A stretch of DNA of 64,000 nucleotides, from contig JAQUMX010000005.1 of the NCBI GenBank assembly GCA_028717885.1, positions 4,838-68,837 on the forward strand. The letters are read 5' to 3'. The notes beneath the pieces are model-generated. The model searched no databases, had not been told where the DNA came from, and worked only from the letters and a program-made list of their open reading frames with translations. Below are positions 1,645-12,816 of this stretch, piece by piece (position 1 is the first letter of the stretch; each line of letters begins with the position of its first letter). Position numbers and translations under genes: made by a program. Source of the DNA: Candidatus Omnitrophota bacterium. GTDB taxonomy: Bacteria > Omnitrophota > Gorgyraeia > Gygaellales > Profunditerraquicolaceae.

Positions 1645-2556
1645 CTAGTGATTTAAAATCTCATTTAATATGCCTTTTCTAGCAAATTCTATATTCAAGA
1701 TATAATCCATATCGTTAAAAGCATTTGTTATCTGATGAACTCCGCCTTTCCAGCCTACCCCGTCAGTTAACCAAATAAATCCAAAACCATCTTTCGCAAG
1801 CTCATTCTTTCTATTCGTATAGGAGTCTACAATTTCTTGAGGTTTCGAGCCCTGCCCGTCGTAATAGTTCACTTCCATATTATAAACTTTGCGCTTGGTG
1901 ATAATAGCATAATCGAATTTTCTATCTGCGAGCTTAGCTGGTATTTTCATTTTATATTCTTCTTGAAGATATTGAAATTTCTTTTGCTTCACAACCGTTA
2001 TATCTTTAATAGTATCTATTATTGGCTCGATTAGCTCTTCCATGGCTGTACCGCTTCTATTTTTTCTAGCATTAGTGTCGCTACCTGTTTCTACCCCCAA
2101 AAGAAAGTCTCTTAAATTCTTGATCTTAAGAGAAGAAAACAAATTGAATATCCCAGATTTATCACAAAAGGTTACCAACTCTGTAATTTCTTCATCCTCG
2201 AGTTTACCTTTTGCTTCGAAATCAAAAATTCTCAAACTTTCAGCTGGCTTAGCCCTATCCTCAATAACGGTAATTTCTGAATCATGCACTGCAATTATTA
2301 AAGGTATCACCGTAACAACTTCGGGATTCTTCTTTAAGATCTCTCTCAATTTTTCTTTGGGCTCCGCTATGCCAACCAAATAATTCAGGATGTTAATTTC
2401 GTATTCATATTTCTTTACATTAGCCTGAATCTTTCCCCAATCAACAAAATAAGAAAAGGTTTTGTTTGAAACCAATAGAGTTTCCTGAAATTTCCTTAAT
2501 AACTCATTGGTATTATTAATATTGTAGAATTTTTTGTAAACTGCTAAATTTGCCAT
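1645..2556 (-). CDS. type II restriction endonuclease, DpnII/MboI family (GATC-specific family)
   Basis: 303 aa. Blocks DKSGIFNLF, GVETGSDTNARKNRSGTAMEELI, RKFDYAI, MEVNYYDGQGSKPQE and FIWLTDGVGW line up with my recollection of R.DpnII (EKSGIFDLL, GVEVGMDTNGRKNRTGDAMENIV, KRFDFVI, IEVNFYSGSGSKLNE, FMWITDGQGW). Starts 5 nt after the methylase stop. Confidence 0.88.
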   Translation of the reverse strand: MANLAVYKKFYNINNTNELLRKFQETLLVSNKTFSYFVDWGKIQANVKKYEYEINILNYLVGIAEPKEKLREILKKNPEVVTVIPLIIAVHDSEITVIEDRAKPAESLRIFDFEAKGKLEDEEITELVTFCDKSGIFNLFSSLKIKNLRDFLLGVETGSDTNARKNRSGTAMEELIEPIIDTIKDITVVKQKKFQYLQEEYKMKIPAKLADRKFDYAIITKRKVYNMEVNYYDGQGSKPQEIVDSYTNRKNELAKDGFGFIWLTDGVGWKGGVHQITNAFNDMDYILNIEFARKGILNEILNH

Positions 2557-2561
2557 TTGGA

Positions 2562-3440
2562 TTATTTTTTATTAAACTCGTCTTTTAATCTTTTTATGGA
2601 AACATCCAAATAATCTTTTTCTAATTCAATTCCGATATATTGTCTTCCTTCTATAAATGCAGCAATGCCAGTAGTCCCGCTGCCCTGAAAAGGGTCTAAA
2701 ATTATATCCCCAGGCCTTGTGGCAGCTAACACAATCCTATTTAGCAACTCCAAAGGCTTCTGTGTAGGATGCTTCCCATATATCTTTTCTATCGGCCCCG
2801 GTGCTTTAATAGACCAAAGACTTAACATCTGTTTGTTGTTATTCATCTTCCTCATTAACTCGTAATTAAAATAGTGTCGGCTATTTTTATTCTTGGCCGC
2901 CCAAATAATAGTTTCTGTAGAATGAGTAAAATAACGACAGCTTAAATTCGGAGGGGGATTAACTTTAAACCAAGCTATGTCATTTAATATCCTATAACCT
3001 AGAGTTTGCATAGCAGAGCCGACTGTATAAATTATGTGTGAAGTTCCTGATACCCAGATTGTGCCGTTTAGGGTTAAAACGCGCTGACATTCCCTTAGCC
3101 ATCTTTGAGTAAAAATATAATTTTCCTCTACTCCCTTAGAAACATCCCACTTTCCTTTATTGACTGAAACCATTTTCCCAGCGTGACAAGTAATTCCACC
3201 ATTAGAAAGAAAATAGGGTGGATCAACAAAGATCATATCGATAGAGTTCTCAGGAATTCTTGGCAGGATATCGAAGCAATCTTCTTTAAAAAGAATAAAT
3301 TTATGCTTTTTATCTTCAAGATATGGCTTGAACGAAACATTTTTACTTAATTCAAAAATGTCTTTCTTGTGTGTGATTTTTTCGTGGGTAAGCGTAGTCA
3401 TGGGTATAAACGATGACGACCTATATATTTCTTCCTGCAT
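2562..3440 (-). CDS. beta-class N6-adenine DNA methyltransferase, DpnA (M2.DpnII)-like
   Basis: Motif IV DPPYFLSNGG precedes motif I DPFQGSGTTG (beta-class order). Also NLSCRYFTHSTETIIWA and GKHPTQKPLELL, as in DpnA. The track start (GTG 3449) overlaps the SD AGGAGGTG. The ATG at 3440 (MQEEIY...) sits 6 nt after that SD, so it is preferred. Confidence 0.9.
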   Translation of the reverse strand: MQEEIYRSSSFIPMTTLTHEKITHKKDIFELSKNVSFKPYLEDKKHKFILFKEDCFDILPRIPENSIDMIFVDPPYFLSNGGITCHAGKMVSVNKGKWDVSKGVEENYIFTQRWLRECQRVLTLNGTIWVSGTSHIIYTVGSAMQTLGYRILNDIAWFKVNPPPNLSCRYFTHSTETIIWAAKNKNSRHYFNYELMRKMNNNKQMLSLWSIKAPGPIEKIYGKHPTQKPLELLNRIVLAATRPGDIILDPFQGSGTTGIAAFIEGRQYIGIELEKDYLDVSIKRLKDEFNKK

Positions 3441-3490
3441 ATTTACCACCTCCTACTATAATTGACGTAAAAGGTGGCAAAATCTAACAA

Positions 3491-3703
3491 CTATTTTTTT
3501 CTTCCAGTTAACTCGTCTAAACCAATCCCAAATGCATCCGCAATCCTTATCAGTGTTTCCATGGAAGGATTGGGGGTATAACCAGCCTCTATTTTGGCTA
3601 AAGTACTGAAAGGTATATCTGCCTTCTTCGAGAGTTTGTCTTGAGTTATTCTATATCTACTTCTCAATTCTTTTATGCGCTTCCCTAAATTAACACTTGA
3701 CAT
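3491..3703 (-). CDS. XRE-family helix-turn-helix protein, probable R-M controller (C) protein
   Basis: 70 aa. LGKRIKELRSRYRITQDKLSKKADIPFSTLAKIEAG is a classic HTH_3 pattern. First gene of the co-oriented C-M-R operon, 50 nt upstream of the methylase. Confidence 0.75.
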   Translation of the reverse strand: MSSVNLGKRIKELRSRYRITQDKLSKKADIPFSTLAKIEAGYTPNPSMETLIRIADAFGIGLDELTGRKK

Positions 3704-3836
3704 ATATACCCAAGTTTTGATACTATAATTTAGATACCAAGTTAACCATCTTTATAAGTATTTTACCACAAAATTATTAATTTCAAACTATTTTCCTTAC
3801 CTTAAAATTGCGGCGGTTTTTTGAAAAGACGTTGCT

Positions 3837-3871
3837 GGGCGGGGCGCGGCCCCCCACCCCGCGCCCCGCCC
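3837..3871. repeat. perfect 13-bp all-G/C hairpin (GGGCGGGGCGCGG / CCGCGCCCCGCCC) with loop CCCCCCACC
   Basis: Arms 3837-3849 and 3859-3871 are exact reverse complements. The minus strand reads GGGCGGGGCGCGGGGTGGGGGG, four G-tracts. Confidence 0.9.
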
Positions 3872-4010
3872 AATCCATGGCTTTCTCAAGTGTTTATCGG
3901 GAGAGGCGCAGTATGCCGCACCGCGAGTCTTTAATCGTTAAATGCGGCATAGCGGACGAACCTCTAAAAAATTTTGTTTTTAGCTTGTAAGAATGTGTCG
4001 GGTGAGGACG

Positions 4011-4048
4011 CTGGTGTTGCGGCCGCCCCCACCCGGCCGCAACACCAG
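4011..4048. repeat. perfect 15-bp hairpin (CTGGTGTTGCGGCCG / CGGCCGCAACACCAG) with loop CCCCCACC
   Basis: Arms 4011-4025 and 4034-4048 are exact reverse complements. The loop is near-identical to that of the 3837-3871 hairpin although the stems are unrelated. The 3' arm abuts or overlaps module 1. Confidence 0.9.
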
Positions 4049-4210
4049 CTGCGCCGCACACGCATTGCATTAGCTCGAAGGCAGCCGGCCAAGGCTGCCG
4101 CCAAAGGAGCCCCGCTCCTAAGCGGGGCGACTGGTGCATTGGGAGATGTGGGAGCGCCCCCCAAGGCGCGGTGCATTATAGATGTTTCCTTAGAGACCAG
4201 CTTTACCCGG
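4046..4210 (+). repeat. GC-rich modular repeat, copy A (modules 1-2-3 with two inserted hairpins)
   Basis: Module 1 at 4046-4080. Hairpins GGCAGCC/GGCTGCC at 4080-4099 and GCCCCGC/GCGGGGC at 4109-4128. Module 2 at 4141-4178 (contains GCGCC-CCCCAA-GGCGC). Module 3 at 4181-4210. A 10-bp inverted repeat 4185-4194/4271-4280 closes a further long hairpin. Confidence 0.7.
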
Positions 4211-4290
4211 TATTATAAACAAAAACGGTAAAAGGCGGGGCAAGGCATTAACATAGTTGGAGAGGTTCTTTCTAAGGAAATTTTATTTGC

Positions 4291-4336
4291 AGGGCGCGGG
4301 GATAAGGAGATGTTTCAGGAGAGAGCTTTACCCGGG
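4291..4336 (+). repeat. GC-rich modular repeat, partial copy B (end of module 2 plus module 3)
   Basis: GGGCGCGGGG...GGAGATGTTTCAGGAGAGAGCTTTACCCGGG parallels GGCGCGGTGCATTATAGATGTTTCCTTAGAGACCAGCTTTACCCGG of copy A. Confidence 0.55.
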
Positions 4337-4445
4337 GGTTTTAGAGGCGATCAAAATTTGATTCGATTCCTGGAATATCTGGACCCCATATTATTATTTT
4401 GCCTTTCGGCGAAGAATTTGTAGGGGTATCTGTAAGAAAACAATA

Positions 4446-4565
4446 GGCTTGCTAACGCAAGCCACAGCTGCTCCGCACACGCATTGCATTACCACGAAGC
4501 GAGCGGCCCAGCGAGCGCCGTTAATCGGGAGATGTAGGAGCGCCCCCCAAGGGCGCGGGGCATTA
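4446..4565 (+). repeat. GC-rich modular repeat, copy C (hairpin + module 1 + unrelated insert + module 2), abutting the 5' region of the lipoprotein gene
   Basis: Hairpin GGCTTGC-TAAC-GCAAGCC at 4446-4463. Module 1 at 4465-4499 (32/35 identical to 4046-4080). Module 2 at 4527-4565 (36/39 matches to 4141-4178, including a 1-nt indel). Ends about 30 nt before the AGGAGG SD of the 4605 CDS. Confidence 0.7.
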
Positions 4566-4604
4566 GTGATATTTCTAAAAAATAATAATAGGAGGCTTTT
4601 TGAG

Positions 4605-5432
4605 ATGAATAAGATATTTTACCTATTAATATTAGTGCTCTTATTATCCGGTTGCGCCACAAAAATGGCTTATCTGAATACACAAAAACCACCTGAAGAG
4701 GTCAGAAAAGATAAGGATGATTGTCAGGTAATAATTGATTCCTCTGATTTTAAGGACGCTGGTTTAAAACAGAATAAATTCAATCAGTGCATGAAGGATA
4801 AAGGGTATAATGTTGTTTCAGAGGATAAGGCGGAGGAGGTCCAGGGATTCAAGGAGTTATGGGTAAAGTCGGGAACAGATTTCAAGGCCTACGAAGCGAT
4901 CTTTATCGACCGCGTAGACGTAAGTCAGGTGAAAGAAAAAAATAACAATATCCCCGGCACCAAAGTAACCGATAATGATATAAATAACCTGGGCGATGAA
5001 ATGTTAAAGCGCTTCTCCGGGATTTTAAGCGCTGTGATGCCGGTTATACGGGATAAAGAGGAGGCGGCCGGCAAAAAAGTTCTTTATGTGAGGTTAAAAT
5101 TGAATAATATTGCCCAGACTAAAGTCGGATTTAATGCAGCGTTACAAGTAGCAGGCCAGGTGTCGGGCTTGCCTTTGCCCGGAGGTCCGGCAGGGTCATT
5201 TTCTTTTGAATGCGCGATCGCTGATTTTGTCACCAAAGAAAAATTGATGGTTATTTCAAGCGAAACCAAGGCGGATAAGAACGCTTCTCTGGCGGGATTG
5301 GAAAAATTTAAGCACTGGAAGCGCGCATACAATATCATGGATTACTGGGCAGACCATCTGGCGGCATTGCTTGCCAAAGAGCGCGGCCAGAAATACAAAT
5401 CCCAGATAAGGATTAAAATAATTGATTTCTAG
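4605..5432 (+). CDS. lipoprotein of unknown function
   Basis: The track ORF starts at 4449, but its first 52 aa lie in the GC-rich repeat. The internal ATG at 4605 is preceded by AGGAGG and opens MNKIFYLLILVLLLSGC (signal peptide plus lipobox). Confidence 0.7.
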   Translation: MNKIFYLLILVLLLSGCATKMAYLNTQKPPEEVRKDKDDCQVIIDSSDFKDAGLKQNKFNQCMKDKGYNVVSEDKAEEVQGFKELWVKSGTDFKAYEAIFIDRVDVSQVKEKNNNIPGTKVTDNDINNLGDEMLKRFSGILSAVMPVIRDKEEAAGKKVLYVRLKLNNIAQTKVGFNAALQVAGQVSGLPLPGGPAGSFSFECAIADFVTKEKLMVISSETKADKNASLAGLEKFKHWKRAYNIMDYWADHLAALLAKERGQKYKSQIRIKIIDF

Positions 5433-6527: not shown

Positions 6528-7634
6528 ATGCGTAATTCAGGAATAAAATGGATATTGGTTCTACTTACCGTTGGATTATTGTTGGCCGGTTGTGGCAACC
6601 GCGGGTCTCAAAAAGGACAGCAACAAGGTTGGCTGGAGGTCGGGGTCGTAACCATAAGAACTGAGCGCGTGGTGTTGACAGATGAATTGCCTGGCCGTAC
6701 GAACGCTTTTCTTACCGCCGAAATTCGGCCCCAAGTAAACGGCTTGATTCAGAAGCGCTTGTTTACAGAAGGCTCGGAAGTCAAAGCAGGACAAGTACTT
6801 TACCAAATTGATCCTGCCCAGTACCAGGCTGCTTATAATAAGGCTAAGGCCAATCTTCCGGCGCTTAAATTAAGAGTTGAACGCTACAGGGAAGCATTGG
6901 TTGATAAAGCAGTCAGCCAACAGGAATTTGATGATGCGGAAGCTGCCTATAAACAGGCGCAGGCGGAGACGGAAAACGCGCGGATAAACCTTAATTACAC
7001 CCAGGTTGTTTCGCCAATTACTGGGCGTATCGGAACCTCTAGCGTTACTGATGGAGATATTGTTACGGCATACCAGGCTACGACTTTAGCTACGGTGCAG
7101 CAGTTAGACCCGATTTATGTGGATATTCCTCAATCTACTTTGGAAATACTGCGTTTGCGCAAGAGCCTTGAAAACGGAGGGCTTAATTCAGATAATACCA
7201 ATCAAAATAAGGTAAAGCTGATTTTGGAAGACGGAACATCTTATCCTGCTGAGGGTACGCTTCAATTTCAGGATGTCACCGTAGATCCAACTACCAGCTC
7301 GGTAATCCTGCGGGCGATATTCCCTAATCCGAAAAATATCCTTTTGCCCGGGATGTTTGTCAGGGCAATAATCGTAGAGGGTGTGGATGAACAAGGAATT
7401 CTTGTTCTCCAGCAGGGAGTTTCTCGTAATACAAAAGGAGAAGCTGTGGCGTTAATTGTCGATAAAGAAGATAAAGTCCAACAGCGAATACTTTCGGTAG
7501 AAAAAATCATAGGTGATAAATGGCTTGTTTCCGCGGGGCTAAATCCCGGAGACAAGGTGATTGTTGAGGGAATCCAAAAGGTCAGGCCCGGAGTGGCGGT
7601 AAAGGCCGTTCCTTTTGAAGACAACAGGAATTAA
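6528..7634 (+). CDS. RND efflux periplasmic adaptor (AcrA/MexA type) lipoprotein
   Basis: The track starts at 6423, but the ATG at 6528 follows GGAGAAG and opens MRNSGIKWILVLLTVGLLLAGC (lipobox). Body shows typical MFP motifs (AEIRPQVNGLI, VVSPITGRIG). Confidence 0.88.
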   Translation: MRNSGIKWILVLLTVGLLLAGCGNRGSQKGQQQGWLEVGVVTIRTERVVLTDELPGRTNAFLTAEIRPQVNGLIQKRLFTEGSEVKAGQVLYQIDPAQYQAAYNKAKANLPALKLRVERYREALVDKAVSQQEFDDAEAAYKQAQAETENARINLNYTQVVSPITGRIGTSSVTDGDIVTAYQATTLATVQQLDPIYVDIPQSTLEILRLRKSLENGGLNSDNTNQNKVKLILEDGTSYPAEGTLQFQDVTVDPTTSSVILRAIFPNPKNILLPGMFVRAIIVEGVDEQGILVLQQGVSRNTKGEAVALIVDKEDKVQQRILSVEKIIGDKWLVSAGLNPGDKVIVEGIQKVRPGVAVKAVPFEDNRN

Positions 7635-7645
7635 ACGTAGAGACT

Positions 7646-10600
7646 ATGCTATCTAAGTTTTTTTTGAACCGTCCGGTTTTTGCATGGGTAATTGCCATTA
7701 TGATAATGGTTCTGGGTGGTTTGGCGGTTTTCACCCTGCCGGTTTCCCAATATCCGCCTATCGCCCCGCCGTCTATCCGCATCACAGCTCTTTATCCCGG
7801 CGCTTCCGCGGAAACCGTAGAAAACAGCATTACGCAAATCATTGAGCAGCAGATGACCGGTTTGGACAGGATGCTTTATATGTCCAGCTCCAGCGACTCT
7901 TCTGGTTCATCAAGTATTGAATTGACTTTTTCCCCGGGCACTGATCCGGATATTGCCTGGTCTAAGGTGCAAAATAAGCTTCAACTGGCCATGCCGCGGC
8001 TTCCTGAAGTAGTGCAGCGCCGTGGAGTTTCCGTACAGAAATCCACCCGTAATTATCTCCTGATAGTGGGATTAGTCTCTGAAGACGGCAGCATGACTGA
8101 TATTGATTTACGCGATTACATGCAAAGCGTCGTGCAGCCTGTTTTGGCGCGCGTGCCCGGAGTGGGCGAAGCAGAGTCGTTCGGCAGCGAATATGCCATG
8201 CGTATCTGGTTTGACCCTAGCAAGTTGGTCAGCTATGGGCTAACAGCGGACGATGTTATCAGGGCAATACAAAATTACAATGTTGAAGTTTCCGGCGGCC
8301 AGTTTGGTGACGCTCCGGCAATAAAAGGGCAGCGCCTGAACGCATCCATCATAGTGCAAAGCCTGCTAAAGACCCCGGAAGAATTTTCTGATATTCCTGT
8401 GCGCATTAATCCCGACGGATCAACGATTAGGATTAAAGATATCGGCCGCGTAGCATTGGGAAGCGACCAGATGAACATAAAGCTCTACTTTAACAAAGGG
8501 CAGCCTTCGGCAGGGCTCGCCATTCGCCAGGAGCCCGGAGCTAATTCCCTGCGTACGGTTGACGCCATCAAAGCCAAGATGGAAGAACTAAGCCATTATT
8601 TCCCGCCGGGGATGAAATTAACTTACCCTTATGATACCACGCCTTTTACCAGGGTCGCCATTAAGGAAGTATTTAAAACGCTGGTTGAGGCCATTGTTTT
8701 AGTTTTCCTGGTAATGTATTTGTTCATGGGCAATATCCGGGCAACTTTTATTCCTACAATCGCAGTGCCGGTGGTATTATTAGGGACTTTTGGGGTATTG
8801 GGAATAGCCGGGTTTTCCATTAACATGTTGACGATGTTTGCCATGGTATTGGCTATAGGCTTATTGGTAGACGACGCTATTGTCGTAGTGGAGAACGTGG
8901 AGCGTTTAATGAGCGAAGAGGGCCTTATGCCGCGGGAAGCAGCCGCTAAATCTATGGAGCAGATCACTCCCGCATTAATCGGCATCGGCCTTGTGCTTTC
9001 CGCGGTTTTCGGGCCGATGGCATTTTTTGGGGGCTCTACCGGCATTATTTACCGCCAATTTTCCGTAACCGTTATTGCCGCAATGTTACTTTCGGTGGTA
9101 GTGGCTTTAATCCTGACACCTGTTCTTTGCGCTTCGTTTCTTAAGCCGGTGCCAAAAGGGCATCAGCCAGCCGAAGGCGGAATCTGGTTTTTGCGGCCTT
9201 TTTTCCGTTGGTTTGACCGGATTTTCTTTAAGTCACGCGACTTATATGTCGGGCTGGTCAGTCATTCATTTAGCCGGAGCGCGCGGTATATCTTCTTTTA
9301 TTTTATAATCGTGGCGGCAATGTTATTTGTTTTCTTGCGCATGCCCACAGGCTACCTACCCGATGAAGATCAGGGAATCCTGGTTGTTATGGCTAATTTG
9401 CCTTCCGGAGCAACTCTTGAGCAATCTGAAGCGGTGCTGAAAAAGGTACAGCAGTATTTTACAGATCAAGAGAAAGATGCGGTTGAGTCAATCCTTACGA
9501 TCGCCGGAGCGAATCAGGCAGGCCACGGGCAAAATACGGGAATGGCTTTTATCAGGCTCAAAGACTGGGAGTTACGCAAAAAAGAAGAGCTAAAAGCGGA
9601 TGTGATAGCAAACCGCGCCATGAAGGAATTTATGTCATATAAAGAAGCGCTGGTTTACGCTTTTACTCCTCCGGCAATCGTTGAATTGGGCACTGCCAAA
9701 GGTTTTGATTTTGAGCTGCAGGATCGCGGCGGTGCAGGCCATGAAAAGCTGATGGAAGCACGCAGGCAGCTCTTGGAGATGGCCTCTAAAGACCCTCGCT
9801 TAAGCCGGGTGCGGGCAAACGGCCTGGAAGATGTGGCGCAGTATAAAATTGATTTGGATTGGGAAAAGGCCGGAAGCCTGGGGGTTCCCATTGCATCCAT
9901 CGAGGATGCGATTTCTACTACTTTTGGCTCAAGTTATGTCAATGATTTTATTAAAGACGGCAGAATTAAACATGTGGATATCCAGGCTGACGCTCTTTAC
10001 CGCATGCAGCCGGAAAATTTGAAAAACCTTTATGTACGGAATACCCAGGGAAAGATGGTGCCTTATTCTTCTTTTGCCTCCGGGCATTGGATTTTCGGCT
10101 CGCCGAAACTGGAACGCTACAATGCTTTTCCATCCGCCGAAATCCTGGGCGAAGCGGCAAAGGGCAGGAGTTCCGGCGAGGCAATGAAGGCGATGGAGGA
10201 ACTTTCAGCGAAACTGCCCCGCGAGTTCGGCCATGATTGGACAGGGCTTTCTTACCAGGAACGTCAGTCCGGCTCACAAGCTGGGCCGCTTTACGCCTTT
10301 TCTATTCTGATTATCTTTTTATGCGTGGCGGCATTGTATGAAAGCTGGAGTATCCCCATCGTGAATATGTTGATGTTGCCGCTGGGCGTTTTTGGAGCAA
10401 CGCTGGCAACGCATTTACGCGGTATGCCCAATGACGTTTATTTTCAGATCGGTTTCCTTACTACCTTAGGGTTATCCACTAAAAACGCTATTTTGATTAT
10501 TCAGTTTGCCCAGCATCGCATTGAAAACGGTGAAAAGATGATTGAGGCGACTCTGGGCGCGGTAAGAACCAGGTTCCGCCCGGTAATCATGACTTCTATG

Positions 10601-10837
10601 GCTTTTTTCTTTGGCGTCTTGCCGCTGGCAATTTCCACAGGCGCAGGCGCAGGCGCACAGAACGCCATAGGAACCGCGGTTGTCGGCGGGATGCTTTCTG
10701 CTACATTCATTGACCTTATTTTTATCCCGTTGTTTTTTATCATCGTATCCCGTTTTTTCAACCATAAAAAAGAGCGGTCGGCAGAAGTTACGGCTGCCGG
10801 ACAGGTAACGCGGAATAATATAAGGAAAAAGAATTAA
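7646..10837 (+). CDS. RND multidrug efflux permease (AcrB/MexB type)
   Basis: 1063 aa. N-terminus MLSKFFLNRPVFAWVIAIMIMVLGGLAVFTLPVSQYPPIAPPSI is the AcrB-family hallmark. 12-TM architecture with two large loops. Confidence 0.95.
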   Translation: MLSKFFLNRPVFAWVIAIMIMVLGGLAVFTLPVSQYPPIAPPSIRITALYPGASAETVENSITQIIEQQMTGLDRMLYMSSSSDSSGSSSIELTFSPGTDPDIAWSKVQNKLQLAMPRLPEVVQRRGVSVQKSTRNYLLIVGLVSEDGSMTDIDLRDYMQSVVQPVLARVPGVGEAESFGSEYAMRIWFDPSKLVSYGLTADDVIRAIQNYNVEVSGGQFGDAPAIKGQRLNASIIVQSLLKTPEEFSDIPVRINPDGSTIRIKDIGRVALGSDQMNIKLYFNKGQPSAGLAIRQEPGANSLRTVDAIKAKMEELSHYFPPGMKLTYPYDTTPFTRVAIKEVFKTLVEAIVLVFLVMYLFMGNIRATFIPTIAVPVVLLGTFGVLGIAGFSINMLTMFAMVLAIGLLVDDAIVVVENVERLMSEEGLMPREAAAKSMEQITPALIGIGLVLSAVFGPMAFFGGSTGIIYRQFSVTVIAAMLLSVVVALILTPVLCASFLKPVPKGHQPAEGGIWFLRPFFRWFDRIFFKSRDLYVGLVSHSFSRSARYIFFYFIIVAAMLFVFLRMPTGYLPDEDQGILVVMANLPSGATLEQSEAVLKKVQQYFTDQEKDAVESILTIAGANQAGHGQNTGMAFIRLKDWELRKKEELKADVIANRAMKEFMSYKEALVYAFTPPAIVELGTAKGFDFELQDRGGAGHEKLMEARRQLLEMASKDPRLSRVRANGLEDVAQYKIDLDWEKAGSLGVPIASIEDAISTTFGSSYVNDFIKDGRIKHVDIQADALYRMQPENLKNLYVRNTQGKMVPYSSFASGHWIFGSPKLERYNAFPSAEILGEAAKGRSSGEAMKAMEELSAKLPREFGHDWTGLSYQERQSGSQAGPLYAFSILIIFLCVAALYESWSIPIVNMLMLPLGVFGATLATHLRGMPNDVYFQIGFLTTLGLSTKNAILIIQFAQHRIENGEKMIEATLGAVRTRFRPVIMTSMAFFFGVLPLAISTGAGAGAQNAIGTAVVGGMLSATFIDLIFIPLFFIIVSRFFNHKKERSAEVTAAGQVTRNNIRKKN

Positions 10838-10838
10838 T

Positions 10839-12323
10839 ATGAAACGGTTAATGATTTTTGCGTTGGGTGTTGTTTTTTTGAGCGGATGTTCGCTGGCTCC
10901 GAAATATATCCGGCCGCAAGCTCCGGTCCCTAACCATTGGCCAAGCGGGCACTCTTATCCGAAGTCAGTGCCGGAATCAAATATTGTAGATGCCATGCAG
11001 TTGAAGTGGCAGGGATTCTTTACTGATCCCAAATTACAACAGATCATCCTGATGGCTTTGCAGAATAACCGTGATTTGCGGCTTGCCGCATTGAATGTGG
11101 AAAGGGCGCGGGCATTATACGGCATTCAGCGCTCTGAATTATTTCCGGTTATTGATGCGCAAAGCGGGTTTATTAAGCAGCGTGTTTCTGCCGATTCTTC
11201 GATTTCCGGGAAGTCATATATAACGCAGCAGTATAGCGCTGATCTGGGCATTACTGCCTGGGAGGTTGATTTTTTTGGCCGTATCCGCAACCTGACAAAA
11301 CAGGCATTAGAAGAATATCTGAATACGGAAGAGGCCCGCCGTAGCGCGCAAATCGCGTTAATTTCTGAAGTCGGCCGGACATACTTGGTTTTTGCCGCGG
11401 ATCAGGCTAACTTTATTTTGTCCAAATCTACTCTTGAGGCACAGCAAGGCGCTTATAAGCTGGTTCTGCGCCGGTACAATGCCAAGATCGCTCAGGAAAC
11501 TGATCTGCTCCGGGCGCAAACCCAGGTGGATACGGCTACGGTAGATGTTTTGCGTTATGCGCGGCAGTTGGCGCTGGATAAAAACGCATTAGACCTTTTA
11601 GCAGGTTCTTCTGTGCCGGAAGAGCTATTGCCTCCTGATTTGGCCAGCGTCAAGCAGTTTAAGAATATTTTTCCAGGTTTGCCTTCTGAGGTGCTTCTTA
11701 AACGCCCGGATATTATGGCCGCGGAACATAAATTAAAAGGCGCCTATGCCAATATCGGGGCAGCCCGGGCCGCTTTTTTCCCTAGTATCTCCATAACAAC
11801 TGCCCTTGGCACGGCAAGCAGCGCTTTTTCCGGCCTGTTTTCATCCGGCAGGTCTACTTGGACTTATGCACCTCAGGTTACGATGCCTATTTTTGATATG
11901 CGTATCTGGGCGGCGTATAGAGTCAGTGAGGCAGATCGCAAGATTGCGCTGACACAGTATGAAAAATCCATCCAGACAGCTTTCAGGGAAGTATCCGATG
12001 TTTTGGCTGTTCAAGGCACAGTGGATCAGCAAATAACAGCGCAACAGTCAAATGTAGATTCCGCGCAAAAGATTTACGGTCTTTCGAGTAAGCGCTATGC
12101 AGATGGTATTGATAGTTATTTAAGCGTCCTTGATGCGCAGCGCTCGCTTTATAGCGCGCAACGCGAGCTCATCGCTTTGCAAGTGATAAAGCTTGCTAAT
12201 GAGGTGAGGGGCTATGCGGTGCTGGGTGGAGGCGCATTAGGAGATATGGAAGAGAAGAGTAAAAGCAGCCGAGAGGCTTTACAAGACCATATCCTTTCTA
12301 TCTTGGATTCTAAGTCAAAATAA
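10839..12323 (+). CDS. outer-membrane efflux factor lipoprotein (OprM/NodT family)
   Basis: 494 aa with lipobox FLSGCSLAPKY. WWxxFxDPxL-like region WQGFFTDPKLQQII. Last gene of the adaptor-pump-OMF operon. Confidence 0.9.
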   Translation: MKRLMIFALGVVFLSGCSLAPKYIRPQAPVPNHWPSGHSYPKSVPESNIVDAMQLKWQGFFTDPKLQQIILMALQNNRDLRLAALNVERARALYGIQRSELFPVIDAQSGFIKQRVSADSSISGKSYITQQYSADLGITAWEVDFFGRIRNLTKQALEEYLNTEEARRSAQIALISEVGRTYLVFAADQANFILSKSTLEAQQGAYKLVLRRYNAKIAQETDLLRAQTQVDTATVDVLRYARQLALDKNALDLLAGSSVPEELLPPDLASVKQFKNIFPGLPSEVLLKRPDIMAAEHKLKGAYANIGAARAAFFPSISITTALGTASSAFSGLFSSGRSTWTYAPQVTMPIFDMRIWAAYRVSEADRKIALTQYEKSIQTAFREVSDVLAVQGTVDQQITAQQSNVDSAQKIYGLSSKRYADGIDSYLSVLDAQRSLYSAQRELIALQVIKLANEVRGYAVLGGGALGDMEEKSKSSREALQDHILSILDSKSK

Positions 12324-12366
12324 TCACAGCGTGTGAGGAAATTACCTCTCTAAACCGCGATTTTTC

Positions 12367-12394
12367 TTGTTTCCTGCCGTAGTTTCACTATAAT
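12367..12394 (+). promoter_or_regulatory. candidate sigma70 promoter of the 12466 transcription unit
   Basis: TTGTTT (12367-12372), 16-nt spacer, TATAAT (12389-12394). This places the 42-nt repeat copy 1 in the 5' UTR. Confidence 0.4.
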
Positions 12395-12411
12395 ACATAC
12401 CTGTAATTGCA

Positions 12412-12453
12412 GAGAGGTTTTCCTTCGGCTCATACGAGAGGGACCCCAATTTT
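12412..12453 (+). repeat. 42-nt intergenic repeat, copy 1 (5' UTR of the 12466 gene)
   Basis: GAGAGGTTTTCCTTCGGCTCATACGAGAGGGACCCCAATTTT. It is 39/42 identical to 13376-13417, and all three differences are transitions. Confidence 0.8.
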
Positions 12454-12465
12454 AATACAAATTGA

Positions 12466-12816
12466 ATGATAAAAGAAATTTGGAATAGTGGTTATGCGTG
12501 GAGGAGTAAGACAGAAGTATTTGGTTGGCCTTTAGTACACATTGCTATTGGGCGAGATCGGGAAACAGGAAAGTTTCTTGTCGCAAAGGGTATTATCGCA
12601 ATAGGGCAATTTGCGATAGGTATAGTCGCTATAGGGCAGTTTGCAGTTGGCTTAATATTTGGTTTGGCGCAATTTGCTGTAGGAATGTTTGCGGTCGCCC
12701 AGATCGCTGTGGGGTTTGTATTTGGCATAGGACAATTCGCAACAGGGATAATCGCTATTGGTCAGTTTGTCATAGGTAATTATGTGTTTTGTCAAACAGG
12801 CCTTCGAATATTTTGA
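12466..12816 (+). CDS. small hydrophobic protein built of about six tandem 10-11-residue repeats (consensus xxAIGQFAxG)
   Basis: 116 aa: ...IIAIGQFAIG IVAIGQFAVG LIFGLAQFAVG MFAVAQIAVG FVFGIGQFATG IIAIGQFVIG... The other frames are also open here only because of the repeats. Confidence 0.6.
   Translation: MIKEIWNSGYAWRSKTEVFGWPLVHIAIGRDRETGKFLVAKGIIAIGQFAIGIVAIGQFAVGLIFGLAQFAVGMFAVAQIAVGFVFGIGQFATGIIAIGQFVIGNYVFCQTGLRIF

Follow-up and report, generated by a model that had tools for sequence, protein, structure and literature searches.

An intergenic region of the window, a 64,000-nucleotide (nt) stretch of a Candidatus Omnitrophota genome (assembly GCA_028717885.1, contig JAQUMX010000005.1), probably holds a large modular RNA of an uncatalogued family. 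The region is the gap at 3704-4604, which has no credible open reading frame (ORF) and is bounded by a DpnII-type restriction-modification unit (- strand) and a DUF3313 lipoprotein gene (+ strand). Positions 3836-4463 (+) are likely to be one copy of the RNA, about 630 nt long, and positions 4446-4575 a minimal extra copy of its core. The 5' domain and core together measure about 350 nt, and tandem sub-repeats extend the RNA to at least 630 nt. There is a good chance that this is a genuine new family of structured RNA and that it acts at the RNA level.

A conserved multi-helix fold under selection

The homologous loci show that the multi-helix fold is conserved and under selection, occurs in a few copies per genome, and is independent of any particular neighbour gene. 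The core was aligned in 31 non-redundant sequences (alignment A2), and a curated structure of 48 base pairs was compared with 500 shuffles and with controls in which the pairing partner was slid by 1-3 columns. Both sides have changed in 30 of the 48 pairs, in a plain count over the alignment. In the observed alignment 84.9% of the cells are paired, compared with 69.8% after shuffling and 29-47% after sliding. The covariation score is 0.311, while the shuffled alignments give 0.102 (0 of 500 reach the observed value) and the slid controls at most 0.072. RNAalifold predicts 33 pairs for the 31 cores, 21 of them compensatory. The core stems vary freely and in a compensatory manner, and the joining strands and C-rich loops are nearly constant. 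In the 5' domain (hairpins H0 and Pb, 25 sequences) 12 of the 18 predicted pairs are compensatory, and this domain is as conserved as the core. The first-pass annotation, which was made from the sequence of the window, had asked for a test of covariation among aligned homologues.

The family is found in Omnitrophota genomes and in metagenomes. Homologues were sought with a two-part exact pattern built from modules 1 and 2, which are repeated segments of the gap, and L-numbers are used here to label homologous loci or contigs. A scan of 185,579 species genomes (one genome per species bin) gave six true matches, which lie in four Candidatus Omnitrophota metagenome-assembled genomes (MAGs) and, as two copies, in one MAG labelled Planctomycetales. 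The same scan gave two chance matches in flavobacterial coding sequence. The metagenome scan gave 38 true loci and one chance match, bringing the total to 44 homologous loci, including some from groundwater and sediment metagenomes. The RNA appears to be specific to the uncultured, largely ultra-small phylum Omnitrophota, with few paralogues per genome. Each positive MAG has one match, apart from one MAG with two, in assemblies that collapse repeats. A search of all the fetched DNA with nhmmer finds two matches in the window, both at this locus. Elsewhere each contig has one to three: L041 has three, spaced within 5 kb, and L015, L017, L036, and L052 have two apiece. There are no matches in the viral, phage, and plasmid collections IMG/VR, INPHARED, and PLSDB, and a phage or plasmid origin was rejected. 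The similarity found by blastn extends beyond the modules, covering window positions 3836-4347 in L045, 3888-4463 in L024, 3759-4232 in L047, and 3800-4228 in L019, so that the ORF-free block is one conserved locus.

The RNA matches no catalogued family. With the 4227 covariance models of Rfam 15 at gathering scores there are no matches in the whole window, and in 20 homologous loci the same mode finds only tRNAs and one tmRNA elsewhere on a contig. In E-value mode, applied to the region and nine loci, one tRNA aside, the matches are weak, sub-threshold, and unrelated, mostly to microRNA precursors. A literature search combining Omnitrophota with structured, large, or ornate RNAs gave no description of such an RNA, and one Omnitrophota genomics paper annotated RNA by Rfam only (PMC10066038). 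The family is accordingly rated as new and would lie outside all catalogued kinds. The Rfam search had been called for by the first-pass annotation, whose option of a novel structured noncoding RNA is borne out by the 44 homologous loci, the strong compensatory covariation, and the lack of an Rfam match. Two of the findings that it would have counted against that option were a clear Rfam match and generic high-copy repeats without covariation, and neither was obtained.

The functional molecule is probably the + strand RNA, in view of a conserved G.U pair, tandem G.A motifs, and terminators on the same strand at other loci. The alignment has 37 G.U cells, of which 23 belong to one conserved pair of helix P1 (G.U in 23 of 31 sequences), versus about 9 A.C cells. 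A P1 pair that is G.U in the full copy (4053/4172) is U.G in the minimal copy, unit C (4472/4559). Tandem A.G/G.A pairs are an RNA motif, and on the opposite strand they become pyrimidine mismatches. The + strand folds at -331.7 kcal/mol (z -5.6 against shuffled sequences) and the - strand at -289 kcal/mol (z -3.0), a difference of 43 kcal/mol in favor of the + strand. Terminator-like hairpins with U-tracts follow soon after the family tail on the RNA strand in L007 and L027. In the window, there is no + strand terminator within 3400-4800 except for one inside the helix-turn-helix (HTH) gene.

The repeats of the gap stand out from the rest of the window. Module 1 occurs at 4046-4091 and 4465-4510 (85% identity over 46 nt, with an identical 19-nt centre), and module 2 at 4138-4166 and 4524-4552 (93%, by repeat finder). 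The centres of both modules occur twice each in 64 kb, where 0.04 and 0.00 matches are expected by chance. The tail of module 2 and the start of module 3 are found in three copies (4163-4188, 4291-4316, and 4550-4575), and the module 3 core AGCTTTACCCGG is 100% identical at 4199-4210 and 4324-4335. Perfect inverted repeats of 16, 14, and 10 bp lie at 4010-4025/4034-4049, 3836-3849/3859-3872, and 4185-4194/4271-4280, and the further hairpin at 4446-4463 was also recovered. No GC-rich perfect hairpins of this kind are found elsewhere in the window. The modules, hairpins, and coordinates of the first-pass annotation were all reproduced by reading the sequence and by repeat finder, and they are far beyond chance. 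Its interpretation of two parts did not hold. Hairpins P3 and P4, which vary and covary within one conserved RNA architecture, account for the "unrelated GC-rich inserts" between the modules, and helix P2 of this architecture accounts for the "hairpin of unrelated sequence" ahead of each module 1.

Anatomy of the RNA and its repeats

The 5' domain consists of hairpin H0 and block b; all features of the RNA are described on the + strand. A profile of this domain matches window positions 3836-4013 in nhmmer (E = 1.1e-35). H0 (3836-3872) is a perfect inverted repeat with a 14-bp stem and a C-rich loop, CCCCCCACC. In 25 homologues, nine of ten predicted H0 pairs have changed on both sides, and the stems are either AU-rich or GC-rich. 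Block b (3890-3960) is conserved across loci and consists of strands CGGGAGAGGCGCAG and AUAGCGGACGAACC around hairpin Pb (3912-3951), whose stems change compensatorily among loci (for example UAUGCCGC/GCGGCAUA, UUAGCGCC/GGCGCUAA, and CUCCCGCC/GGCGGGAG). Ahead of H0 is a conserved 5' flank at 3800-3835 (CCUUAAAAUUGCGGCGGUUUUUUGAAAAGAC...), which blastn and sequence comparison also find in L019, L041 (two copies), and L047, and which is common only to the closest subfamily.

The loop of H0 occurs in two orientations. Most loci carry CCCGCACC, whereas elsewhere the loop is GGUGCGGG, GGGUGGGGG, or GGCGGCGG, which are reverse complements. The hairpin at 4446-4463 likewise has the loop UAAC in the window but GUUA in L024. 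The loops compared are window positions 3850-3858 and 4453-4456 and their counterparts in L028, L019, L041, L007, L046, and L024. The loops of these two hairpins seem to flip between their inverted arms.

An A/U-rich linker (3961-3999) joins the 5' domain to the core and may contain a promoter. The -10-like element read here by eye, TGTAAGAAT (3986-3994), has a TG before it and lies some 6-10 nt ahead of GGGUGAGG. A similar TGTAATAAT or TATAAT is in the same place in most loci and is absent in the L013/L028/L034 group (by eye). From its sequence and position, this element is a possible promoter of the core. At L007 3994-4007, with equivalents in L035, L016, and L043, the conserved AGCGGACGAACC strand takes the form of a small hairpin and U-tract (AGCGG-ACAA-CCGCU CAUUUUUU) ahead of the core -10-like element. 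A reading frame for a tag peptide in the linker was considered and rejected for lack of conservation among the loci.

The core (4000-4175) is a junction of covarying hairpins joined by nearly constant strands. It matches at 4001-4195 in nhmmer (E = 1.5e-46) and is made up, by nhmmer and alignment A2, of a 5' strand (GGGUGAGGACGC), P2, the closing helix P1, the module 1 junction, P3, P4, module 2, and P5. P2 (4010-4049) is a 16-bp hairpin with loop CCCCCACC, and 10 of its 12 distal pairs covary. P1 is a short helix between 4050-4055 and 4170-4175, in which the inner three pairs are well kept. The junction strand at 4056-4079 (GCACACGCAUUGCAUUAGCUCGAA), which is module 1 of the first-pass annotation, is highly conserved in alignment A2 and includes a small hairpin, UUGC-AUUA-GC. 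In a copy found by profile (L015 9938-10129), the sequence is CUA-AAAC-UAG where others have UUGC-AUUA-GCAA, and a small hairpin is preserved. P3 (4080-4099) has 7 bp, four of which covary, and the loop GGCCAA; in many loci tandem A.G/G.A pairs (GCGAGC...GCGAGC) replace two of its Watson-Crick pairs. P4 (4101-4134) is an 8-bp hairpin with a CCUA tetraloop (usually CCCA), tandem G.A/A.G pairs, a 2-bp extension, and an outer CC/GG. Seven of the eight stem pairs and both extension pairs covary, and the absence of P4 from L024 and unit C indicates that it is an optional arm. Module 2 (4135-4169 in alignment A2) consists of the strand GGGAGAUGUGGGAG (4141-4154) and hairpin P5 (4154-4169), where three of three distal pairs and one of two basal pairs covary.

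The constant parts of the core may be brought together by a pseudoknot. The near-constant elements are the joining strands GGUGAGGACGC, ACACGCAUUGCAUUAGCAAGAAG, and GGGAGAUGUGGGAG and the C-rich loops CCCA, CCAA, and CCCCCACCC. The conserved purine-rich joining strands each contain GGA or GGAG. Pairing of the P2 loop with the 5' strand GGGUGAGG (4000-4007; GUGAGG) is present in 85.5% of cells, versus 38-64% in slid controls, and one of the pairs runs from U-A through U-G to C-G among the sequences. There is modest support for this pseudoknot. A long-range pairing of the 5' CGGGUGAGG with module 3 CUUUACCCG, which has 9 bp in the window, was rejected in its favor because it is not kept in L019, L035, and L041 (by eye).

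P2 is interrupted repeatedly. In L037 (929-2954) and L020 (1987-4040) an insert of about 1.7 kb comes between the 5' domain and the core, and there is a short insert in the P2 loop at L014 3140-3210. The L037 insert has an ORF resembling a DDE transposase (by eye). These interruptions suggest that the P2 hairpin is an insertion hot spot.

The 3' part of the locus (4176-4463), which an alignment with L024, L045, L039, and L047 shows to be conserved as well, has grown by tandem duplication. The first copy of module 3 (4176-4215; UUAUAGAUGUUUCCUUAGAGACCAGCUUUACCCGGUAUUAU) is the 3' tail of the first repeat unit and is conserved in 11 sequences of the window-type subfamily. It is followed by a second, internally shortened unit (4232-4347), which consists of block b' (4232-4289) and then the module 2 tail and module 3 (4291-4347, copy B of the first-pass annotation). 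Block b' resembles block b plus the A/U linker, and in 4291-4347 the end of P5, GCGGUGCAUU, and module 3 recur. The second unit is in register in L024, L045, L039, and L047, and it is missing in L048 (about 4216-4335). Module 3 units number one in L048 and two in the window, and roughly five follow the first L041 copy. The locus is therefore a tandem array of units composed of block b and core, and the second of these has lost the centre of the core. What had been described as reusable modules are internal tandem duplications of the RNA, degenerate repeats of block b and the end of the core, and their number differs between strains. A conserved 3' spacer (4348-4445), with GGACCCCA and UUUUGCCUUUCGGCGAA, completes this part; it aligns with L024 at about 72% identity through 4463, is nearly identical in L048, and aligns partly with L045 and L039. 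Palindromes (CCCGGG, ACCCGGGU, or CCCCGGGG), noted by eye, occur at a conserved place in module 3 (window 4199-4210 and 4324-4339; also L039, L047, and L041). The palindrome lies in a conserved unpaired stretch and could mediate RNA-RNA dimerisation; CCCGGG and CCCCGGGG are the sole hint of homo-oligomeric assembly.

L048 is a near-identical strain (GCA_028706935.1, contig JAQTVE010000030.1) that encodes an AcrB identical in sequence to that of the window. Its NCBI contig terminates within the RNA element (L048 1-340, corresponding to window 4170-4605), suggesting that the break was induced by the repeats.

Unit C (4446-4575) is a minimal extra copy of the core. It is matched by nhmmer at 4456-4575 (E = 1.4e-17, profile positions 43-191) and consists of a short P2 (4446-4463), P1' (4469-4474/4557-4562), module 1, P3' (4499-4518), module 2, and P5' (4540-4556), with neither P4 nor a 5' domain. 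The arms of its short P2 match P2 of L047-type sequences. Unit C is kept in L048 with two differences.

Genomic setting and alternative explanations

In the window the RNA abuts a restriction-modification cassette of low GC content. The cassette (1645-3703, - strand, GC 0.26-0.42) borders the 5' flank of the RNA and encodes a DpnII-type endonuclease (1645-2556), an N6/N4 methylase (2562-3449), and an HTH controller (3491-3703). A long open frame lies further left (1-1290, - strand). The GC content is 0.52-0.66 across 3801-4300 and 0.29-0.42 on the left flank. A sigma-70-like promoter (TTGACA at 3697, TACTAT at 3726) is directed from the start of the controller gene toward the RNA. The gap has no credible ORF of at least 50 amino acids, and the ORF list shows only overlapping ORFs on both strands, just as the first-pass annotation had stated. 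On the right, outside the RNA family, are the Shine-Dalgarno sequence (SD; AGGAGG, 4590-4595) and ATG (4605) of the lipoprotein gene (4590-4607, +), which was identified by sequence, Pfam DUF3313, and a lipoprotein signal. The lipoprotein is 100% identical to an NCBI protein attributed to a Candidatus Omnitrophica MAG. A TetR gene and then an RND efflux operon follow on the + strand.

No conserved neighbour gene was found either upstream or downstream among the loci, where most genes were named by eye and Pfam scans covered few ORFs. The genes upstream come from different families, although most of them point the same way as the RNA. Those downstream differ in family, size, sequence, and strand, and are often on the opposite strand. 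Mobile and defence genes recur, including the DpnII system in the window, a large serine recombinase in L003, and a zeta toxin in L004 (the latter two by Pfam), and several loci adjoin tRNA genes. Transposases and PIN, AbiEii-like, and HNH-like proteins were also seen by eye. The locus may resemble a tRNA gene in one respect, namely that mobile and defence genes accumulate beside it.

The recombinase genes are part of elements with ends of their own. Large serine recombinase genes were noted at L003 5627-7566 (Pfam-confirmed only here), L014 3124-5117, L021, and L015 9770-12182. The elements have terminal inverted repeats of about 100 bp. To one side of them is the tRNA-Ser(GGA) 3' end (...CUCUCCGCCA), and to the other the RNA-family tail (...ACCACCGCCA). 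The junctions are at ..CCGCCA, the tRNA-Ser(GGA) 3' end or a look-alike tail, outside the conserved core. A tRNA-like 3' end had been suspected from the tails GUUCGAAC...CCACCGCCA, and this was rejected: the tail is assigned to the ends of the recombinase elements because the tail and the sequence after it match what follows tRNA-Ser(GGA). In L015 a recombinase-sized ORF lies between two convergent, diverged copies of the RNA, and in L042 what looks like an inverted form of this junction cuts the RNA short at P5. L041 has a cassette-like layout at 6800-12700 (- strand), where three identically oriented copies divide the genes into small groups. As read by eye, the groups are a set with DUF134, NifX-like, permease, and DsrE-like genes, a nucleotidyltransferase-type pair, and a MoxR-like ATPase, and each has its own promoter-like TTGACA...TATATT after the RNA.

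Several explanations other than a functional RNA were weighed. A selfish or structural repeat of the BOX, BIME, or MITE type, spread or duplicated as DNA in Omnitrophota genomes, with hairpins that are by-products, stabilisers, or terminators and with no specific RNA function, is unlikely. Such a repeat would account for the modular build and the varying number of module 3 units, the several and sometimes clustered copies per contig, the break of the L048 assembly within the element, the frequent mobile or defence neighbours, and the two orientations of the H0 loop. Against this, copies are few (one to three per contig, and one or two per MAG in the species genomes), the element is absent from the viral, phage, and plasmid collections, and no terminal inverted repeats or target duplications were seen at the borders in L041 and the window (by eye, with imprecise borders). 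The paralogues are also old. The three L041 copies and the two L015 copies differ by compensatory stem changes with the junction strands kept, which points to selection on the fold and not to recent transposition. The first-pass option of a REP, BIME, or MITE family is therefore right about modularity, but there are one to three copies per contig and not dozens, and the stems covary around conserved junctions across species. A role at the DNA level is very improbable. Here the hairpins would either mark recombination or attachment sites, or the scars of such sites, where a defence island ends, or form an origin-like cluster that is recognised when single-stranded DNA folds. The locus does border the low-GC DpnII insert, large serine recombinase genes adjoin it in many loci, insertions recur inside P2, and the inverted arms of H0 and of the 4446-4463 hairpin enclose loops that are invertible. 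Yet the recombinase elements carry their own terminal repeats and their junctions fall outside the core, and an ordered multi-helix architecture of more than 170 nt is kept across species. In addition the arms vary and the loops and joining strands stay constant; at recombinase sites the pattern is the other way round, since there the proteins bind to conserved arms. The G.U pair and tandem G.A would be meaningless in duplex DNA, in which the other strand has C.A and C.U/U.C mismatches. The recombination scars proposed by the first-pass annotation agree with the boundary to mobile and defence genes in many genomes but do not explain the block.

Two further explanations were weighed. It is clearly improbable that the element is a cis-regulatory leader, riboswitch-like or a tandem aptamer, for the downstream DUF3313 lipoprotein gene with unit C as the sensor. 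Unit C ends about 30 nt before the SD of that gene, a gap of about 30 nt likewise separates another minimal copy (L033) from the SD of a different ORF, no + strand terminator intervenes in the window, and the core is aptamer-like in being a junction with constant unpaired nucleotides and variable stems. The leader option of the first-pass annotation fails on comparison of loci, however. Orthologous lipoprotein genes on four other Omnitrophota contigs lack the RNA in front of them, where the gap to the preceding gene is 0-91 nt, downstream genes differ at nearly every locus and are often on the opposite strand, and L007 and L027 have own-strand terminators after the RNA. No expression platform was found when alternative pairings were sought by eye, and unit C plus the leader has a z of only -0.5 versus shuffled sequences; its fold leaves the SD unpaired. 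A highly divergent form of a known RNA missed by covariance models (tmRNA, RNase P, SRP RNA, 6S, a group II intron, or an OMEGA, bridge, or retron RNA) is extremely improbable. The size (about 350-650 nt), the pseudoknot, the nearby tRNA genes, and the restriction to one phylum would fit, but even permissive E-values give only weak, unrelated Rfam matches, and several paralogues per contig argue against a housekeeping role. No reverse transcriptase, IscB/TnpB, or IS110-type gene is consistently adjacent, and none of the signatures of RNase P (GAGGAAAGUCC), SRP RNA (GGAA loop/AGCA), or group II domain V was seen (by eye). A canonical tmRNA is present on the L013 contig together with a copy of the RNA. 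This co-occurrence excludes tmRNA, and the other families are excluded only through the lack of model matches and signature motifs. For tmRNA, which is normally a single gene per genome, ARAGORN is negative in the window, the L013 tmRNA is at 6718-7141, and a contig can have up to three copies of the RNA; the L013 tmRNA (tag peptide VQPTGWIRA, by ARAGORN) lies 4 kb from the RNA copy and served as a negative control. No defining motifs of 6S, group I or II introns, retrons, omega or bridge RNA, or c-di-GMP-II were seen (by eye). A CRISPR array, with short regular repeats and unique spacers, or an attC array, with imperfect palindromes of 57-141 bp around single-gene cassettes, does not fit repeat units of 100-600 nt that are irregular and internally structured, and no cas or intI genes were seen in the flanks, where few ORFs were scanned with Pfam.

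Some observations weigh against the reading as a new family of structured RNA. The outer three pairs of P1 are poorly kept, so that this closing helix is weakly supported. In the 3' repeat domain the sequence is conserved but only 2 of 39 predicted pairs covary in five sequences, which are too few to support a structure. The invariance of the module 1 and 2 strands is partly by construction, because the search patterns fixed CATTGCATTA and GGGAGATGTRGGAG in all pattern-found loci. Two to three copies cluster within 2-8 kb in L015, L017, L036, L041, and L052, and a selfish or cassette-boundary element would look alike in its setting among mobile, toxin-antitoxin, and restriction genes. The two orientations of the H0 loop fit a terminator or a DNA-level role for H0 alone. 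H0 with block b and the core may also be two transcription units, because a terminator-like hairpin separates block b from the core in some loci and a -10-like element precedes the core. Lastly, synteny suggests no partner protein, so that a scaffold or decoy mechanism rests on analogy.

Possible function and relation to known systems

The RNA would act in trans, as neither the upstream nor the downstream genes are conserved. The + strand RNA is presumably made and then works as a folded molecule, perhaps as a scaffold or as a partner or decoy for a protein or the ribosome, by analogy with other lineage-restricted ornate RNAs. The purine-rich GGA/GGAG strands and C-rich loops are probably where it makes contacts, either with each other, as a tertiary core that includes the pseudoknot, or as a binding surface for a protein, the ribosome, or other RNAs, and the tandem sub-repeats would add further copies of part of that surface. 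The balance tips slightly toward a new giant modular class of Omnitrophota RNA that is a trans-acting folded machine or assembly (RNP scaffold, protein or ribosome decoy, or ribozyme), that would have a biochemical role without a described counterpart, and whose genes double as preferred landing zones for defence and mobile DNA. Within the RNA-level explanation, the specific idea of a scaffold or decoy is tentative and has less than an even chance; the RNA may instead be a ribozyme or have a part in processing.

Large structured RNAs are rare in bacteria. Beyond rRNA, RNase P, tmRNA, and introns, there are only a handful (OLE, GOLLD, ROOL, HEARO, and raiA). All of these have led to new biochemistry, the latest example being cages made of RNA alone. 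The present family offers unusually clear helix covariation, long near-constant strands, a probable pseudoknot, and a record of growth by tandem duplication, in a phylum without cultured members whose biology is poorly understood. It is a testable RNA target for structure work and metatranscriptome mining. It also provides an annotation for a locus that breaks assemblies and has been left blank in Omnitrophota MAGs, and a marker for the sites where these genomes gather restriction, toxin-antitoxin, and recombinase genes. Should it prove to be only a structured repeat, it would still be the first such family described for Omnitrophota.

In overall design the RNA is similar to OLE, ROOL, GOLLD, and the raiA motif. 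Like them it is several hundred nt long and multi-domain, with many covarying helices around conserved unpaired strands, and it is a GC-rich island in AT-richer surroundings, restricted to one lineage and with no conserved cis target. It also shares with ROOL and GOLLD a tendency to occur close to tRNA genes and mobile DNA. Unlike these RNAs, the Omnitrophota RNA is built from internal tandem duplications of variable number and has several paralogues per genome, and it shares no sequence or covariance-model similarity with them. GOLLD and ROOL are often found in phage and viral collections, whereas this RNA is not found there, and it has no associated protein gene, in contrast to OLE with its oap genes.

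The RNA also has features in common with repeats, regulatory RNAs, and island anchors. Like BOX in Streptococcus pneumoniae and BIME/REP in enterobacteria, it is intergenic and hairpin-rich, has few module types with one module repeated variably, and can disturb assembly. Those repeats number tens to hundreds per genome and have little distant conservation, while the Omnitrophota RNA has one to three copies per contig, occurs in many species-level bins, and has compensatory stems. CsrB/RsmZ sponges and LhrC/RsmX arrays resemble it in having several paralogues that are sometimes in tandem, repeats of variable number, and short motifs that recur, which in the Omnitrophota RNA are GGA/GGAG in the conserved single strands and the C-rich hairpin loops. 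In the Omnitrophota RNA, unlike the Csr/Rsm RNAs, the GGA motifs are outside hairpin loops and the core is a rigid junction and not a string of equivalent hairpins. Finally, like the tRNA and tmRNA genes that anchor genomic islands, it is a stable RNA gene at the border of variable DNA, with restriction-modification, toxin-antitoxin, recombinase, and transposase genes adjoining and partial copies nearby. It differs from these anchors in that the recombinase junctions are not in the core, and the partial copies are conserved in several species and are not fresh duplicates of an attachment site.

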